Shown here in pieces: positions 1 to 8,657 of a DNA stretch of 64,000 bases. Source of the stretch: an uncultured Chthonomonadaceae bacterium (GTDB lineage: Bacteria > Armatimonadota > Chthonomonadetes > Chthonomonadales > Chthonomonadaceae); contig CAWFQB010000005.1 of NCBI GenBank assembly GCA_963817895.1, positions 832,001 to 896,000 on the forward strand, read 5' to 3'. A program made the position numbers and the translations under genes. How positions within the stretch are numbered: the stretch's first letter is position 1; each line of letters begins with the position of its first letter. The notes beneath the pieces were generated by a model. The model saw only the letters and a list, made by a program, of their open reading frames with translations, was not told the DNA's origin and made no database searches.

Positions 1-538
1 GGGCTACGAGTTCGTCAACAAGCTGACGGGCGGCTCGATCCCGAAGGAATTCGTTCCCGCCATTGAAAAGGGCGTGAAGGAAGCCTTGGAAGCGGGCGTG
101 ATTGCCGGCTACCCGGTTGTGGACGTGAGAGTGTCCGTAACCGACGGCTCATACCACGAAGTCGACTCCAGCGAAATCGCCTTCAAAGTGGCCGCCAACC
201 AGACGATGAAGGAAGCCCTGCGCAAAGGACGCTCGTACATCAAAGAGCCGATTATGGCAATTGAAGTGACCACGCCCGAAGCCAACATGGGCGACGTGAT
301 CGGCGACATCAACCGTCGGCGCGGTCAGGTGGAAGGCATGGAGCCGGAGCCGGGCGGCAAGCAGGTTGTGCGCGCGCAGTGTCCCCTGTCCGAAATGTTC
401 GGGTACGTGAACGATCTGCGCGGGTTTTCGCAGGGCCGCGCGTCCTTCACCATGACGCCCTCGCACTACGCGGAAGTGCCGCGCAACGTGGCGGAAGAGA
501 TCGCCGCCAAGAGCGGCAAGCAGCCCGTCAAGGCATAG
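1..538 (+). CDS. fusA: Elongation factor G, C-terminal part (partial at window edge)
   Basis: Frame open from base 2: [16 protein letters not shown]...[22 protein letters not shown]...[23 protein letters not shown]...[16 protein letters not shown] (EF-G domains IV-V). Confidence 0.97.
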
Positions 539-550
539 CGCAGTAACTCA

Positions 551-600
551 GGGAGTAAGGGGCAGTTGTCTGTCCCTTACTCCCGTTTCTTTGCTTCTTA
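551..600 (+). terminator. Intrinsic terminator after fusA
   Basis: GGGAGTAAGGGGCAG-ttgt-CTGTCCCTTACTCCC stem followed by a T-rich tract. Confidence 0.7.
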
Positions 601-681: not shown

Positions 682-1182
682 ATGACTCTCCTGACGCGAC
701 TGGCTGTTAAAGAACCCTTTGAGACATGGCCGGATATGGAACTTGCCGCAACAGAACGCTATTGGGACGGCCTGGCATTAGCGGCACATGACCTGTCACG
801 CAATACAGGGGCGGTCTACTGTTTCGGCTACGTTGTCGAGATGTTGTTAAAGGCAGCGTACTTTCGCGTTACCGGTGTGGCAGATACGCAGAACTTAAAT
901 GCAGGGCCATTAGCTGCTATGCGAACGCAGGCCGCATGGCGCGGACGTAATTTACACGATTTGCAAGGGTTAGCCAGTCTGTTGATTGACGTGAGGCAGG
1001 CGCTTGGCATTGCGTTTGATCCCGCTGTGGCCGCGCAAATGCTGTGGTATGTACTCACAGTGGATTCTCATTGGAGAGAAACCCTGCGCTACAAGCACAC
1101 TCCCGCGCTGGAAGAAGAGCTGCATGAGGTGTATTACGGTGTAGAGTGGATTTGGGAGCATCGTAATTTGTTGTGGAGTTAA
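682..1182 (+). CDS. HEPN-like domain protein (putative toxin/RNase)
   Basis: GAVYCFGYVVEMLLKA ... HDL ... W.ETLRY pattern typical of HEPN domains. Confidence 0.7.
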   Translation: MTLLTRLAVKEPFETWPDMELAATERYWDGLALAAHDLSRNTGAVYCFGYVVEMLLKAAYFRVTGVADTQNLNAGPLAAMRTQAAWRGRNLHDLQGLASLLIDVRQALGIAFDPAVAAQMLWYVLTVDSHWRETLRYKHTPALEEELHEVYYGVEWIWEHRNLLWS

Positions 1183-1185
1183 ACC

Positions 1186-1500
1186 ATGCCGGTAATTAGA
1201 ATTCATCCAACAGTTCCGCAAGCCCCGCCGGAGTTAGTAGCCGCGCTTGCCGACGAGTTGCGGCGTAATGAGGTGGATGGGCCGGAAGACGCGCCGCATA
1301 TTGTTGAGGAAGAAGCCCTGCGCGGCAACTACTTTGCGGTCAAAGTGATATGGGATGCCTGGAAAGGTCTTGACCCGGAACTCCGTAGTCGCGCCATCAT
1401 GGATGCTTACAATCAAGTGAGGCCGGAAGATGTGTCTCACATCAGCCTTGCAATCGGTTTTACCCATGCGGACGCGCAACGCTTCAATATCGCTTCCTGA
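1186..1500 (+). CDS. Small partner of the HEPN gene (putative antitoxin; BolA/MNT-like beta-alpha pattern)
   Basis: Starts 3 nt after the HEPN stop with a GGAG RBS; F.VKVIWDAWKGL...RS.AIMDAY pattern. Confidence 0.6.
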   Translation: MPVIRIHPTVPQAPPELVAALADELRRNEVDGPEDAPHIVEEEALRGNYFAVKVIWDAWKGLDPELRSRAIMDAYNQVRPEDVSHISLAIGFTHADAQRFNIAS

Positions 1501-1515: not shown

Positions 1516-2112
1516 ATGTCTAAGATCAAACCAGACTGCGACCAATCCGCGCCCTTTCTGATGTGGGTTGAAGAGATTACAAGGCTACGCCGCGATATTT
1601 GCCTTGTGATTGGGCTTGTTGAGCGCGGGAAATTAGAACTTAATGCGCGTATCGAAGTTGTAGGCGGACAATCCGTTCAACAGGCGCGTATCGCAGACAT
1701 TGAACAGTTCTACAAAAAACAAACTGTTATGCGTTGTGGAGAGCAGGCAGGTGTTCTTCTTAGGCCGACGCCCAAAAAAATAACTCAAGATTGTGTCATT
1801 GCTGCGCCGGACAGTATTCAGGCATGTACAAAATTTCGCGGCAATATACAAGTCGTGAACGAAGCGGAAGGCAGCGGCAAACCTGTCTTCCTTACAGGCG
1901 AAGAAGTTCAGTTCTTCTTTCGTAATATTTATGTGCCGGGAACTTATACGTTCCTTGATGGTTTCGATTCGACAGTATCCGAGAACAGAGTGATTCTGAT
2001 TTGTACGCTTACTCGCCCTGTTGCCATGGAAGAAGGACAAGAGTTTACCGTCTATAGCAACGGGAGAGTTGTTGGAATAGGTAAGGTTGTCGAACTGATT
2101 ACGAAAAGTTGA
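1516..2112 (+). CDS. Diverged EF-Tu domain II+III-only protein (no GTPase domain)
   Basis: PFLMWVE, GLVERG, IEVVG, IEQFYK, GEQAGVLLR, TKF, QFFFR, PVAMEEG..F.V...GRVVGIGKV are collinear with EF-Tu domains II-III; GAGG RBS. Confidence 0.85.
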   Translation: MSKIKPDCDQSAPFLMWVEEITRLRRDICLVIGLVERGKLELNARIEVVGGQSVQQARIADIEQFYKKQTVMRCGEQAGVLLRPTPKKITQDCVIAAPDSIQACTKFRGNIQVVNEAEGSGKPVFLTGEEVQFFFRNIYVPGTYTFLDGFDSTVSENRVILICTLTRPVAMEEGQEFTVYSNGRVVGIGKVVELITKS

Positions 2113-2129
2113 GCTTCTGGAGGAACAAA

Positions 2130-2375
2130 ATGCCGGAAGAAGCTAATATGGCGGCGGATTGGCTCAAACAAGCTGCCGCCGAACGTGGAATGGCAGACAG
2201 GTTCAGCGCCACGTATATGCGCGCTGACAGAGAATGGTTATATTTCGCGGTGCGGCTGAGTAACGCAGGTGATGCTTCGGAAAGAGCAAATTTATTGCTT
2301 GATCTGGAAGACGCCTGGGAGTCTCACGAACCGAACCCGCGCTGGCATTTGATGTTGATGCCTTCCGGCGCGTAG
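2130..2375 (+). CDS. Small hypothetical protein, paralog of 3053..3346
   Basis: GGAGGA RBS; C-terminal LEDAW...EP.P...L.L.P.G motif shared with 3053..3346. Confidence 0.7.
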   Translation: MPEEANMAADWLKQAAAERGMADRFSATYMRADREWLYFAVRLSNAGDASERANLLLDLEDAWESHEPNPRWHLMLMPSGA

Positions 2376-2454
2376 GAAGCGCGCGATTGACCGATAAACC
2401 AACAGTCGGCTTTATTCCTGCAAATGAAGCCGAACTGATTGCGAAAAATTGAGG

Positions 2455-2504
2455 TATAATAGCAAGCCGGTCTGCGGACAACGGATGCCCGACCGGTTTT
2501 TGCT
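2455..2504 (+). promoter_or_regulatory. Putative S10 promoter -10 box and leader hairpin
   Basis: TATAAT at 2455-2460 then an AGCAAGCCGGTC...GACCGGTTTTTGCT hairpin upstream of rpsJ; no clear -35. Confidence 0.45.
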
Positions 2505-2514
2505 TTGACTATGG

Positions 2515-2613
2515 TTCAGGTATTCAGGTATTCAGGTATTCAGGTATTCAGGTTAGGCGCAATTCCTTCCTGTACACCTGAATACCTGAATACCTGAATA
2601 CCTGAATACCTGA
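2515..2613. repeat. Inverted pair of tandem octamer arrays (TATTCAGG)n / (CCTGAATA)n
   Basis: About 4.5 units per arm, 22-nt spacer, ends just before the rpsJ RBS. Confidence 0.95.
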
Positions 2614-2630: not shown

Positions 2631-2951
2631 ATGCCACCCCTCGGACGACAGGACAAGGTTCGCATTCGCTTGCGGGCTTTTGACCACCGCATCCTGGACC
2701 AGTCGGCAGAAAAGATCGTGGATACCGCCAAGCGCACGGGCGCGCGCGTGGCCGGACCCGTTCTTCTTCCGACCGAGAAGCTGATCATCTGCGTGAACCG
2801 CAGCACGACCATTGACAAAGAGAGCATGGAGCATTTCGAGCAACGGACGCATAAGCGCCTGATTGATATTCTCGAACCCGGCCCCAAAACCATTGACGCG
2901 CTGATGCGCCTCGATCTGCCGAGCGGCGTTGACATCGAAATAAAACTGTAG
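2631..2951 (+). CDS. rpsJ: 30S ribosomal protein uS10
   Basis: [35 protein letters not shown]...HKRLIDI. Confidence 0.98.
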
Positions 2952-3052
2952 GCGCAACGTTTATGGAACTCTGGCAGCAATGGTGGATGCTGGCGCAGTA
3001 ATCGGTTCATCACGGCTCAGATAGAAGCGATTTTGCCGAAAGAAAACTAGCA

Positions 3053-3346
3053 ATGGCTGATTTGTTGGAGAAACCAGTCCGGCTGGATCTCGATGCGCTT
3101 CACGCCTGGCTAGAGCAAGAGGCAAAAGCGCAAAACATTCAGGCATATTTCGCAATCCGAAGCGCGAAGGTGCTTGAGGATGGCTACCTTAAATTGCCGA
3201 CCTACATCGGCAATCCAGGAACTGCCTTTGAACAGGTGGTCTTGATGGGAAACCTTGAAGACGCCTGGAACGATCAGGAACCGAAGCCTGAGTTTAAGCT
3301 GCACCTCTACCCGATGGGCAAGCCCCGCGAGTGGAGCAGCGAGTAG
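3053..3346 (+). CDS. Small hypothetical protein inserted between rpsJ and rplC, paralog of 2130..2375
   Basis: LEDAWNDQEPKPEFKLHLYPMG motif shared with the upstream paralog. Confidence 0.7.
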   Translation: MADLLEKPVRLDLDALHAWLEQEAKAQNIQAYFAIRSAKVLEDGYLKLPTYIGNPGTAFEQVVLMGNLEDAWNDQEPKPEFKLHLYPMGKPREWSSE

Positions 3347-6389: not shown

Positions 6390-7262
6390 ATGTCTGATGA
6401 TACGATAGACTCGAACGTGGCCGTTATGGAACGCCCGCGTCAGCACCGCGAAAACCGCAAAAAGAATATCGGGCGCAAAGTGGCCCCCAACCAGGCGTTT
6501 GCCGTCGTCAAGTTCATCCGCGTGCCGCCGCGCAAAGCGCGGCTGGTTATCAACGAAGTGCGCGGCAAGTACACCAACGACGCGCTGGCGTTTCTGCGCT
6601 TTATTCCCAACCGCGCGGCAGGTTACATCTCCAAAGTGCTGTATTCCGCCGTCGCCAACGCCGCCAACAATCACGGCCTGAACCCGGACAACCTGAAGCT
6701 GGTGGAAGCCCGCGTGGACGAAGGCCCGCGCATGAAGCGCGTCCAGCCCCGCGCACAGGGGCGGGCGTACCGCATCCTGAAGCGCATGAGCCATATCACA
6801 GTTGTTGTGGAAGAGGTCGGTCCCAAGCCGCGCAAGCCGAAAAAGGCGGGACGCCGCAACCAGCAGCCCGGTCGCCAACAGCAGGCCGCTCCGATGACAA
6901 CGGCGGCCCCGGTCAGCATTGCGGAAGATACGGAAATCACCACACCGGTAACGGCAGTGGAAGATACCGCGTCCGCCGCAGTGGCAGCCGAGGCGACAAC
7001 GCCGGTCACTCCGACAACGGAAACAACCACATCCGCGAGTGAAGCGACGGCAGCGCCGGAAGCAACACCCGCCACTGCTGACGTGCCGGAAGGTCCGCAA
7101 ACGGCGAACCCGGCAGCCACGGACGAAATTGGCGCGCCGACCACGCCGGACGCAGTGGAACCGACAATCGCCTCCACGGATGGCGACGTAACCGGCGATA
7201 CGCAGGCGGAAACCGCCAACACTCAGGACAAAACCGACGAAATCGGAGCGCCGACGGAGTAG
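6390..7262 (+). CDS. rplV: 50S ribosomal protein uL22 with N-terminal and long Ala/Thr/Glu/Pro C-terminal extensions
   Basis: IRVPPRKARLVINEVRGK...SAVANAANNH...VDEGPRMKR..PRAQGRA..ILKRMSHITVVV core. Confidence 0.96.
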   Translation: MSDDTIDSNVAVMERPRQHRENRKKNIGRKVAPNQAFAVVKFIRVPPRKARLVINEVRGKYTNDALAFLRFIPNRAAGYISKVLYSAVANAANNHGLNPDNLKLVEARVDEGPRMKRVQPRAQGRAYRILKRMSHITVVVEEVGPKPRKPKKAGRRNQQPGRQQQAAPMTTAAPVSIAEDTEITTPVTAVEDTASAAVAAEATTPVTPTTETTTSASEATAAPEATPATADVPEGPQTANPAATDEIGAPTTPDAVEPTIASTDGDVTGDTQAETANTQDKTDEIGAPTE

Positions 7263-7266
7263 GAGG

Positions 7267-7391
7267 GAAGATACGAGATACGAGATACGAGATACGAGTG
7301 GGGAACTATAATTCCGCGTTTTCTCGGTTCAGGGAATACAGTGTAGGATGGTCTTTTCACTTGTATCTTGTATCTCGTATCTCGTATCTTC
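7267..7391. repeat. Inverted pair of tandem heptamer arrays (GATACGA)n / (TCGTATC)n
   Basis: Between the rplV stop and the rpsC RBS; 4 units per arm. Confidence 0.93.
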
Positions 7392-7409
7392 TGCCTCTCA
7401 GGAGAGACT

Positions 7410-8657
7410 ATGGGCCAGAAAGTACACCCAATCGGATTTCGAATCGGCGTGATTCGCGACACGGAGAGCAAGTGGTATCTCCCGAAGCGCGGTTTCGCCG
7501 ATGCCGTATATGAAGATTACAAGATTCGCCGTTATATCAAGAAGCACAAAATTCTTGCCAACGCCGCTATTTCCCGCGTGGAAATCGAGCGGGGCGGCAA
7601 CCGCGTAAAAGCCACGCTGCACACCGCCAAACCCGGCATCATCATCGGGCGGCAGGGGCAGGGCGTGGACAACCTGAAAGCCGAACTGGAAAAGTTGACA
7701 CAGAAACAGGTGCATGTTTCAGTCAATGAAATCCGGCAGCCCGATCAGGACGCGCAGCTCGTGGCCGAAAGCATCGCGCAGCAGATCGAAAAGCGCATCG
7801 CGTACAAACGCGCCATGCGTCAGGCGGTTCTTCGCGCCATGAAACTGGGCGTCAAGGGTATCCGCGTGATGTGTTCCGGGCGGCTCGCGGGCGCGGAAAT
7901 GGCGCGCAAAGAGCAGGATCGCCAAGGCAAAATTCCGCTTCACACCCTCCGCGCCGACATTGACTACGGCTTTGCCGAAGCGGCAACCACGTATGGCAAC
8001 ATTGGCATCAAAGTGTGGATTTACAAGGGCGATGTTCTGCCGGGACAGGCGCGGCAAACGGAGTCCGAGCCGGCTCGCCCGCAGCGCGGCGATGGCCGCC
8101 CGGATCGTTCCGGCGAACGGTCGGACAGCGGACGTGGCGGTGATCGCGGCGGCAGGGGCGGCAGAAGCGGTGGCGGCGGTGATCGCGGCGGACGCGGTGG
8201 CGGCGGCGGTGGACGCGGCGGCCAGGGTAGCGGCGGCTTTAGCGGCGGCGGTGGTCAAGGCGGTGGCGGCTTCAGTGGCGGTGGCGGTCGCGGCGGTCAA
8301 GGCGGCGGTGGCGGCTACCAGGGCGGCGGTCAAGGCGGTCAGGCTGGCGGTCAGGCCGGACCTGCCCGCACCGGCGGACGCGGCGACGGCTTTGGCGGCG
8401 CGGCGCAGGGCGGCCCGCGCGCGCAGGGTACGGGCGGCAGTCGTCCAAGTGGCGGGGGCGGCGGCACAAGCCGACCGGGCGCAGGTGGTGGGCCGAGCGG
8501 CGTACCGGGCGGCGGCGGGCGACCTGCCGGCGAGCCGGGGCCGCGCGCCGATGTGAGTGGAACCGGGCGCGAGGCGCCCCAGGGTCATCAGGATCAACGC
8601 GGGGGCGCAGGCCCCGGCGGCGGTCATCCCAACGACAATCCTACACCGAACGAGTAG
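7410..8657 (+). CDS. rpsC: 30S ribosomal protein uS3 with about 200-aa Gly/Arg-rich tail
   Basis: [13 protein letters not shown]...KPGIIIGR...[12 protein letters not shown]...[12 protein letters not shown]; start placed at ATG 7410 after AGGAG. Confidence 0.97.

Follow-up and report, generated by a model that had tools for sequence, protein, structure and literature searches.

A G-domain-less EF-Tu gene in the tufA slot of a Chthonomonadaceae bacterium

The two bacterial genes for elongation factor EF-Tu, tufA and tufB, are normally held near-identical by gene conversion, and a spare copy is either kept or lost. The fusA-rpsJ interval of an uncultured Chthonomonadaceae bacterium raises the question of what else can become of a spare tuf. 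In the window, the 64,000-nucleotide stretch of DNA analysed here, this interval contains ORF 1516-2112 (forward strand, as are all features below unless noted), which encodes 198 aa from an ATG start with zero internal stops and is preceded by a Shine-Dalgarno-like GAGGTG at 1505-1510, 5 nt before the ATG, as read from the sequence. Its product matched the Pfam profiles GTP_EFTU_D2 (31.8 bits, cut-off 30.3) and GTP_EFTU_D3 (46.1 bits, cut-off 27), and the Pfam search gave no match to the G domain (GTP_EFTU, PF00009). TIGR00485 aligned over profile positions 203-393 only, and its score of 110 bits lies below the curated cut-off of 522. Together with the structural model, these matches place domain II at about residues 9-98 and domain III at 100-194. 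The AlphaFold model, computed from an input alignment of five sequences, is all-beta (pLDDT 79, pTM 0.70; the remaining four models scored 50-62). The matches listed for it by Foldseek were EF-Tu (TMq 0.78-0.84), and 5i4q_C, which comprises domains 2 and 3, aligned with a TMt of 0.82. These results confirm that ORF 1516-2112 codes for the second and third domains of EF-Tu and lacks the G domain, as the original prediction had read from the letters together with the ribosome-binding site and the intact frame.

The same prediction described the gene as more AT-rich than its neighbours. Its GC content is 46.1% (GC3 0.43) against 60.8% (GC3 0.79) in domains II-III of the genome's own tuf; a GC3 this low occurs in about 1.4-1.5% of 5444 crude ORFs, and the codon bias typical of EF-Tu is gone. 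Identity to the own tuf is 34%, and 32% in domain II alone. G-domain remnants lying upstream in another frame had been named in advance as a sign against the prediction; tblastn, blastn and phmmer --max detected none in any frame of the fusA-rpsJ interval (best E 0.19). In an RNA run from another strain (X2), contigs fell on fusA, rpsJ and rplC and none on ORF 1516-2112, although such contigs cannot show absence.

The original prediction had also found no full tuf, which holds within the fusA-rpsJ interval but not genome-wide, as one full tuf is present on another contig, at G000:C10:82361-83554 (697 bits); with the genome 81% complete, there may be a further copy. This gene lies between tRNA-Tyr/Thr and tRNA-Trp and is followed by ORFs that presumably represent secE, nusG and rplK, surroundings that indicate the tufB arrangement. 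Synteny was compared in 41 other family genomes, 28 of which had an rpsJ match. In 23 of these 28 relatives, the position directly upstream of rpsJ is occupied by tuf or by a C-terminal end of it; 13 of the slots were checked by tblastn (81-98% identity to the own tuf) and 10 were read from coordinates, many of the 23 being contig-end pieces. Three relatives (G001, G023 and G015) showed no tuf-like remnant over a fusA-rpsJ distance of 0.2-0.6 kb, G002, of the same genus, carried a frameshifted copy of ORF 1516-2112 in the slot, and the remaining one was uninformative. This pattern indicates that tufA is ancestral here and dispensable, and that ORF 1516-2112 stands in its place. The fusA end at locus L026 (L042) is 98% identical to that of the window.

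Residues shared with local tuf genes point the same way. Q64 and V179 occur in 6/6 members of the G-domain-less family described below, and the same state is found in 20/20 family tufs and 0/10 outgroup EF-Tus; D61 and F134 occur in 5/6 and have the state of the tufs of the own subclade (10/10). Only 3/9 diagnostic columns match at the family level, and the subclade columns gave 2/8 clear matches, one more in 1/6 of the proteins and two that lean to the other state. A free tree nested the G-domain-less family inside the own tuf subclade (SH-aLRT 93), but the AU test did not reject a position outside it (p 0.80), and placing the family outside raised the score by 8.9 log units; the trees have long branches, and five redundant or short rows were excluded from the AU-tested one. 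We therefore base a tufA origin on the slot and the shared residues, not on the tree. ORF 1516-2112 is likely an in-place descendant of tufA, cut at the domain I/II boundary. Most probably, once tufB sufficed, tufA would have been cut down at the domain boundary by its 5' half; the truncated gene would have gained a new start and would no longer have been homogenised with tufB.

A different origin, in which the gene arrived as cargo of a mobile cassette carrying part of a foreign EF-Tu and landed in an empty tufA slot, would agree with the outside tree position, with an AT shift common to the cassette genes of the interval and with the reuse of domains II-III as a module in unrelated bacteria. 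However, the lineage residues are shared with local tufs, the slot is the same in four placed copies despite their differing cassettes, and no copy was found at another site in 42 family genomes, all of which makes importation very improbable.

The gene belongs to a small family. Protein searches, which return intact genes only, yielded five homologs of 183-204 aa, namely P0002 (81% identity), P0003 (73-74%), P0004 (60%), P0006 (41%) and P0157 (38-39%), which together with the product of ORF 1516-2112 (P0001) make up a family of six proteins and form one clade with a support of 100/100. A new N-terminus ending in SAPFLM is common to four of the homologs, and P0002 is called from the next Met. 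Further copies were found as DNA. On a contig of run X3 (7242 bases), where the differences reproduce P0004 residues, about 55 bases separate the middle of the fusA hairpin from the gene; there is no cassette upstream of the gene, and 401 extra bases stand downstream. A contig of run X5 carries fusA, the 104-aa ORF and the gene; it is free of gaps over 1790-2106 and has 8 gaps (net -6) somewhere over 1170-1790, and the 217 bases of a contig of run X1 are identical to window 2055-2271. All four copies that could be placed (window, G002, X3 and X5) lie between fusA and rpsJ. A scan of the genome contigs of the whole collection returned only the broken G002 copy and a true tuf, and a scan of 42 of the 64 parts of the metagenome contigs returned at least four true tufs and no family member. 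A DNA motif scan gave the broken G002 copy and locus L041, which had no tblastn match to the queries and was taken as chance.

The original prediction held that the gene is not a simple decaying tuf, and the selection analysis upholds this in part. Between ORF 1516-2112 and the G002 copy, dN/dS is 0.59 (146/198 codons, breaks excluded), an estimate that is noisy because the G002 copy is broken. The same G000-G002 pair gave 0.04 for tuf (0.01 for domains II-III), 0.04 for fusA, 0.03 for rpsJ and 0.13 for rplC, and 0.08, 0.19 and 0.42 for the neighbouring ORFs 1186-1500, 3053-3346 and 2130-2375, respectively. Compared with the X3 contig, 20/184 zero-fold and 9/45 four-fold sites differ (K0/K4 0.50, Fisher p 0.13); this comparison covers domain III, the part that aligns, and 34 of the 35 listed differences (one gap artefact was dropped; 40 in all). 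Constraint thus stands at a dN/dS of about 0.5-0.6, not significantly below 1, and is not the strong purifying selection seen in EF-Tu. Neutral simulations from ORF 1516-2112 to the identities of the five homologs gave 2.1, 3.2, 5.3, 10.3 and 11.1 expected stops, with probabilities of no stop of 0.125, 0.045, 0.003, 0/400 and 0/400, a test that is inflated because protein searches see only intact genes. Substitutions were milder than neutral in 3/5 pairs (p 0.000, 0.007 and 0.003) and not in the other two (0.12 and 0.14), and three-way invariance (0.269) fell inside the neutral range (maximum 0.293). These counts show, with modest strength, that frame and fold are kept beyond neutral expectation and that the sequence is nearly free. 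The intact homologs, the N-terminus that four of them share, the stops expected and the missing G-domain remnant speak for the prediction; the weak constraint, one frameshifted copy and the loss of the slot tuf in three relatives count against it.

The many frameshifts and stops in the G002 copy, and the preference of protein databases for intact genes, would also suit a neutral pseudogene of which searches pick the intact copies. We consider this highly unlikely. Of the three homologs found as DNA, X3 matches the intact P0004 and X5 is gap-free over 1790-2106; the probability of no stop is 0.003 or less for three pairs, and no short split forms of the gene occurred among 160 candidates. Furthermore, the G002 breaks affect the ORF and a partner-type gene alike, many of them are one-base insertions, and the genes on both sides are spared, a pattern that may reflect assembly noise.

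Could the product still do any part of the work of EF-Tu? We mapped the six proteins on E. coli EF-Tu (Met1 numbering). The tRNA contacts His67 and Lys90 belong to the domain missing here. The T-stem residues of domain III, which we take to be R319, H320, T321, T339, R378 and E379, are lost in 6/6, and the presumed EF-Ts contacts (321-324 and 348-352) are mostly replaced. Four invariants absent from tuf are new and family-wide (E130, Y144, C163 and E176); the last replaces an arginine presumed to face domain I, and at the domain I interface R374 is E in 6/6. Titration of EF-Ts, or of the G domain of the real EF-Tu, through domain III would make the product a translation regulator. Domain III is indeed available and a single tsf occurs in the genome, but with the assumed contacts mostly replaced and E in place of R374 throughout, we give this idea little chance. 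The sites of Lit cleavage and of Tse6 lie in the G domain and are thus absent from ORF 1516-2112. The Doc target Thr382, on a domain III loop, is V, A or R in 6/6 proteins (site from PMC7180214). Of the attackers named in the original prediction, only those of the CdiA kind would still suit a bait, through domain II.

For the aminoacyl end of tRNA, we used the A76/aminoacyl pocket and the 5'-phosphate arginine as defined in PMC4329189. Pocket residues are identical in 23/54 cells, near the background of 32-40%, and the arginine, R289 (Arg300 in T. aquaticus), is lost in 6/6; E216 and L278 are kept in 6/6, and E260 in 5/6 plus one D. The three kept residues would suit the tRNA-binding adaptor of the original prediction, or a protector of the aminoacylated 3' end that works through the domain II pocket without GTP control. 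This is unlikely given the loss of R289, a pocket no better conserved than the remainder, the position of His67 and Lys90 in the missing domain and the loss of the presumed T-stem residues. Without a G domain there would be no GTP cycling, and without tRNA contacts no tRNA carriage. From the established structure of EF-Tu, the product would not act in elongation and likely cannot deliver tRNA. All 20 family EF-Tus have Gln-Phe-His beside the A76-binding glutamate, where other EF-Tus have Met-Phe-Arg/Lys.

Divergence differs between the two domains. Between P0001 and P0004, identity is 33% over residues 20-98 but reaches 77% over 99-198 (p 4e-9), and the reverse holds for P0004 and P0157 (64% in domain II, 38% in domain III, p 9e-4). 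In P0004, G002, P0006 and P0157, identity to tuf is 45-49% in domain II and 29-35% in domain III, whereas in real EF-Tus domain III is the better conserved of the two (59% in II and 74% in III between the own protein and that of E. coli). Three alleles have a domain II of very different type, and deeply different types of domain II occur on near-identical domain III backgrounds. Between G000 and G002, dS is 0.35 in domain III, like that of core genes (0.24-0.33), and 0.85 in domain II. Quartet sites for differing trees are thin (3 vs 1 in domain II, 6 vs 0 in domain III). Domain swapping between old alleles and domain-specific bursts would both fit. As domain II is tuf-like in four alleles and replaced by a different type in three, it may be the working part, possibly exchanged by recombination.

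The surroundings of the gene change from copy to copy. Behind the 3' end of fusA (2..538; EF-G domains IV-V, Pfam EFG_IV and EFG_C), the predicted terminator was found as a hairpin of 15 pairs at 551..584 with a T-rich tail to ~607, and G002 has an equivalent hairpin. ORF 682..1182 (166 aa) is a HEPN-like candidate toxin of a two-gene cassette; its feature match (0.94) to an Atlas cluster with PF05168 in 12% of its members is a lead only, and Pfam, NCBIfam and PADLOC gave zero matches. G002 and both run contigs (X3 and X5) lack it, so ORF 1516-2112 shows no fixed linkage to this HEPN gene. The partner, ORF 1186..1500 (104 aa), is 91% identical in G002 and has a paralog on C14 next to a HEPN-like paralog. 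This second pair (G000:C14:564369-565217) stands between ORFs reading like gap and pgk, in another housekeeping operon. ORF 1186-1500 and ORF 1516-2112 share a frame, with one TGA and five codons between them. A read-through fusion of the two was considered and rejected: G000 and G002 both show the shared frame, but both also have the TGA, and ORF 1186-1500 is lacking from the X3 contig.

Downstream of the gene, ORF 2130..2375 (81 aa) is likely an orphan antitoxin; in relatives, ORFs of its type stand behind a HEPN gene (32% identity to ORF 3053-3346). Its homologs in G001 and G002 come after a 133-aa gene behind rpsJ, which is a Pfam HEPN in G002, and in the X3 contig the 401 extra bases stand directly before its equivalent. 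rpsJ itself (S10; 2631..2951, Pfam PF00338) is followed by a 12-codon remnant of a HEPN gene start (2963..3001), matching the start of the 133-aa gene of G002, and by a second partner-type ORF of 97 aa (3053..3346, between rpsJ and rplC; 86% identical in G002). The AT shift extends to ORFs 682-1182, 1186-1500 and 2130-2375 (52-55% GC), and PADLOC gave no match for five window proteins, ORF 1516-2112 among them. The HEPN-type cassettes in the tufA slot had gone unmentioned in the original prediction. They differ among all four placed copies, and the EF-Tu derivative is the constant element.

A 23-nt direct repeat, also present in G002 and the X3 contig, has its first copy at the 3' end of ORF 1516-2112 (2091..2113) and its second at 2431-2453 (21/23 identical); the second copy and the TATAAT at 2455-2460, likely the -10 box of the S10 promoter, span 2431..2460. 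TATAAT and a downstream hairpin are conserved in G001 and G002, and a sigma-70 promoter scan gave 0 sites (none with a -35 box). Since the repeat ends one base before TATAAT, ORF 1516-2112 was likely at one time adjacent to the S10 promoter, an arrangement that tuf seems to have in G024, with a TATACT box 7 nt behind its stop; a cassette was then likely inserted behind it. The rpsJ leader contains tandem 8-mers that form a 38-bp inverted repeat (2515..2613, no strand assigned), and Rfam gave chance miRNA hairpin matches only. The leader hairpin of tandem repeats is built of an 8-mer unit in the window and of a different 7-mer unit in G002 (L020 8784-8873).

Two readings are the most likely. 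The one we tentatively prefer is that ORF 1516-2112 is kept as a dispensable, passive bait whose domain II would bind EF-Tu-directed toxins or drugs; binders of domain II would then be drawn from real EF-Tu by competition with a stable II-III fragment. Such a fragment is indeed stable and binds CdiA-CT/CdiI NC101, of which the toxin touches domain 2 only (PMC5737660). Among the domain 2 contacts named there (Glu260, Phe262, Arg263 and Asp267), E260 is kept in 5/6 proteins, F262 in 3/6 and D267 in 1/6, and position 263 is H, as in the own tuf, in 3/6. A tuf-like 8-mer around E260 in P0001 was within chance. The bait reading is further favoured by neighbouring HEPN-type cassettes that come and go, by open frames with mild substitutions in 3/5 pairs, by the domain-specific divergence of P0001 and P0004, and by the tuf slot of 23/28 relatives, in which the G002, X3 and X5 homologs also lie and with whose lineage the residues are shared. 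The main objection is that the host target is little resembled, domain II of P0001 being only 32% identical to that of the own tuf. D267 and the Doc threonine (0/6) are poorly kept, dN/dS is not significantly below 1, and invariance falls within the null. Moreover, a GC3 of 0.43 suggests low expression against a competitor that ranks among the most abundant proteins, the gene is lost in G001, G023 and G015 and broken in G002, the family has six proteins only, and its origin is not fixed by the tree. A more specific version, in which an in-place tufA decoy is polymorphic and its domain II alleles are swapped between close strains, protecting them from EF-Tu-docking toxins, is conceivable but doubtful.

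Almost as likely as bait is a slowly fading, partnerless relic of tufA, whose frame would stay open through translation in a cassette operon and which would be lost on clean deletion. Misfolded or truncated products or lost coupling would carry a small cost, and the last codons would hold sequence beside the S10 -10 box, in keeping with the repetition of the 3' end of the gene just before TATAAT and with the TATACT of G024. Weak constraint, the vanished codon bias, functional surfaces eroded with no spared patch, and clean loss in 3/28 relatives plus one broken copy agree with such a fate. Useless bacterial genes, however, are usually deleted long before such divergence, and even alleles of only 38-41% identity all retain their full length, both barrels and the new N-terminus that they share. 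The new invariants also speak against a relic, and domain-specific divergence needs recombination or selection.

How does the gene compare with known systems? It shares with EF-Tu (TIGR00485; PF03144, PF03143) two beta-barrels of the same order and fold, the fusA-rpsJ position and 34% identity to the own tuf. Unlike EF-Tu, which has a G domain, keeps the tRNA 5'-phosphate and Doc residues and evolves at a dN/dS of 0.01-0.04, it is dispensable, scores far under the family cut-off and shows a ratio of about 0.5-0.6. In the accessible text of PMC4342817, actEF-Tu (Streptomyces EF-Tu3) is named as the sole clearly distinct EF-Tu-like subfamily, and unconverted duplicates are said to be readily lost. 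EF-Tu3 is likewise an additional tuf copy, no longer subject to gene conversion and now divergent, but it is described as a working, antibiotic-resistant translation factor and has a G domain. The EF-Tu fragment Lys209-Gly394 bound to CdiA-CT/CdiI NC101 (PMC5737660) has near-identical boundaries and is the Foldseek match of TMt 0.82, but it is a laboratory piece of wild-type EF-Tu, not a gene; of its contacts, P0001 keeps E260 and F262, and 263 and 267 are changed. aSelBL/MM1309 and SelB, as described in PMC4329189, are EF-Tu-like paralogs with altered tRNA pockets that, unlike our protein, keep the G domain and bind GTP. As the EF-Tu, EF-Tu3 and SelB-like families all need a G domain, ORF 1516-2112 falls outside them. 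HEPN cassettes with small partners (PF05168; PMC7180214) resemble the flanking genes, whereas ORF 1516-2112 gave neither a HEPN nor a PADLOC match and stays in place as the cassettes change. Among open-licence papers, searched through listings and the starts of abstracts, we found none on a natural G-domain-less EF-Tu gene.

The G-domain-less EF-Tu gene is real and lineage-restricted, and it represents a third fate of a spare tuf, in which the GTPase half is lost at the domain boundary and the remainder persists in several strains and diverges to about 35% identity. If a partner exists, EF-Tu would have a natural decoy here, and the idea that fragments of translation factors can serve in toxin conflicts could be tested directly; if the polymorphic decoy reading is true, a core translation gene would have turned into a polymorphic defence gene. 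If there is no partner, the gene still illustrates clearly for what length of time a truncated housekeeping gene may endure. Annotation pipelines may call the gene tuf, which would distort EF-Tu marker trees.

The II-III unit recurs in other proteins. P0005 and P0007 carry repeated units of an L7/L12 C-terminal domain and EF-Tu II-III without a G domain, and P0005 further contains a PASTA domain and begins with a stretch reading like a lipoprotein signal. Other G-domain-less II-III proteins are P0022 (signal-like N-terminus), P0037 (DUF900 fusion) and the apparently stand-alone P0029 and P0093; in P0063, EF-Tu II-III precedes a diverged G domain. These five have ordinary EF-Tu-like scores and look independent of the family described here, and some may be partial calls. 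P0023 and P0134 are membrane or pentapeptide-like proteins of ~1100 aa that end in a whole diverged EF-Tu.

Beyond the tufA slot, the rpsJ-rplC gap (window 2952-3346; L020 9183-10586; L023, L044, L045, L048, L049 and L052) appears as a family-wide hotspot of HEPN/partner cassettes, and in G002 this region shows a duplication of the rpsJ 3' end (35-nt repeat) together with three genes of the partner type. Further along the window, the gene at the rplV position (6390-7262, 290 aa) has a long low-complexity, Thr/Ala-rich C-terminal tail, with a similar tail in G001, and the one at the rpsC position (7368-8657, 429 aa from an early start) has a Gly-rich low-complexity C-terminal tail.
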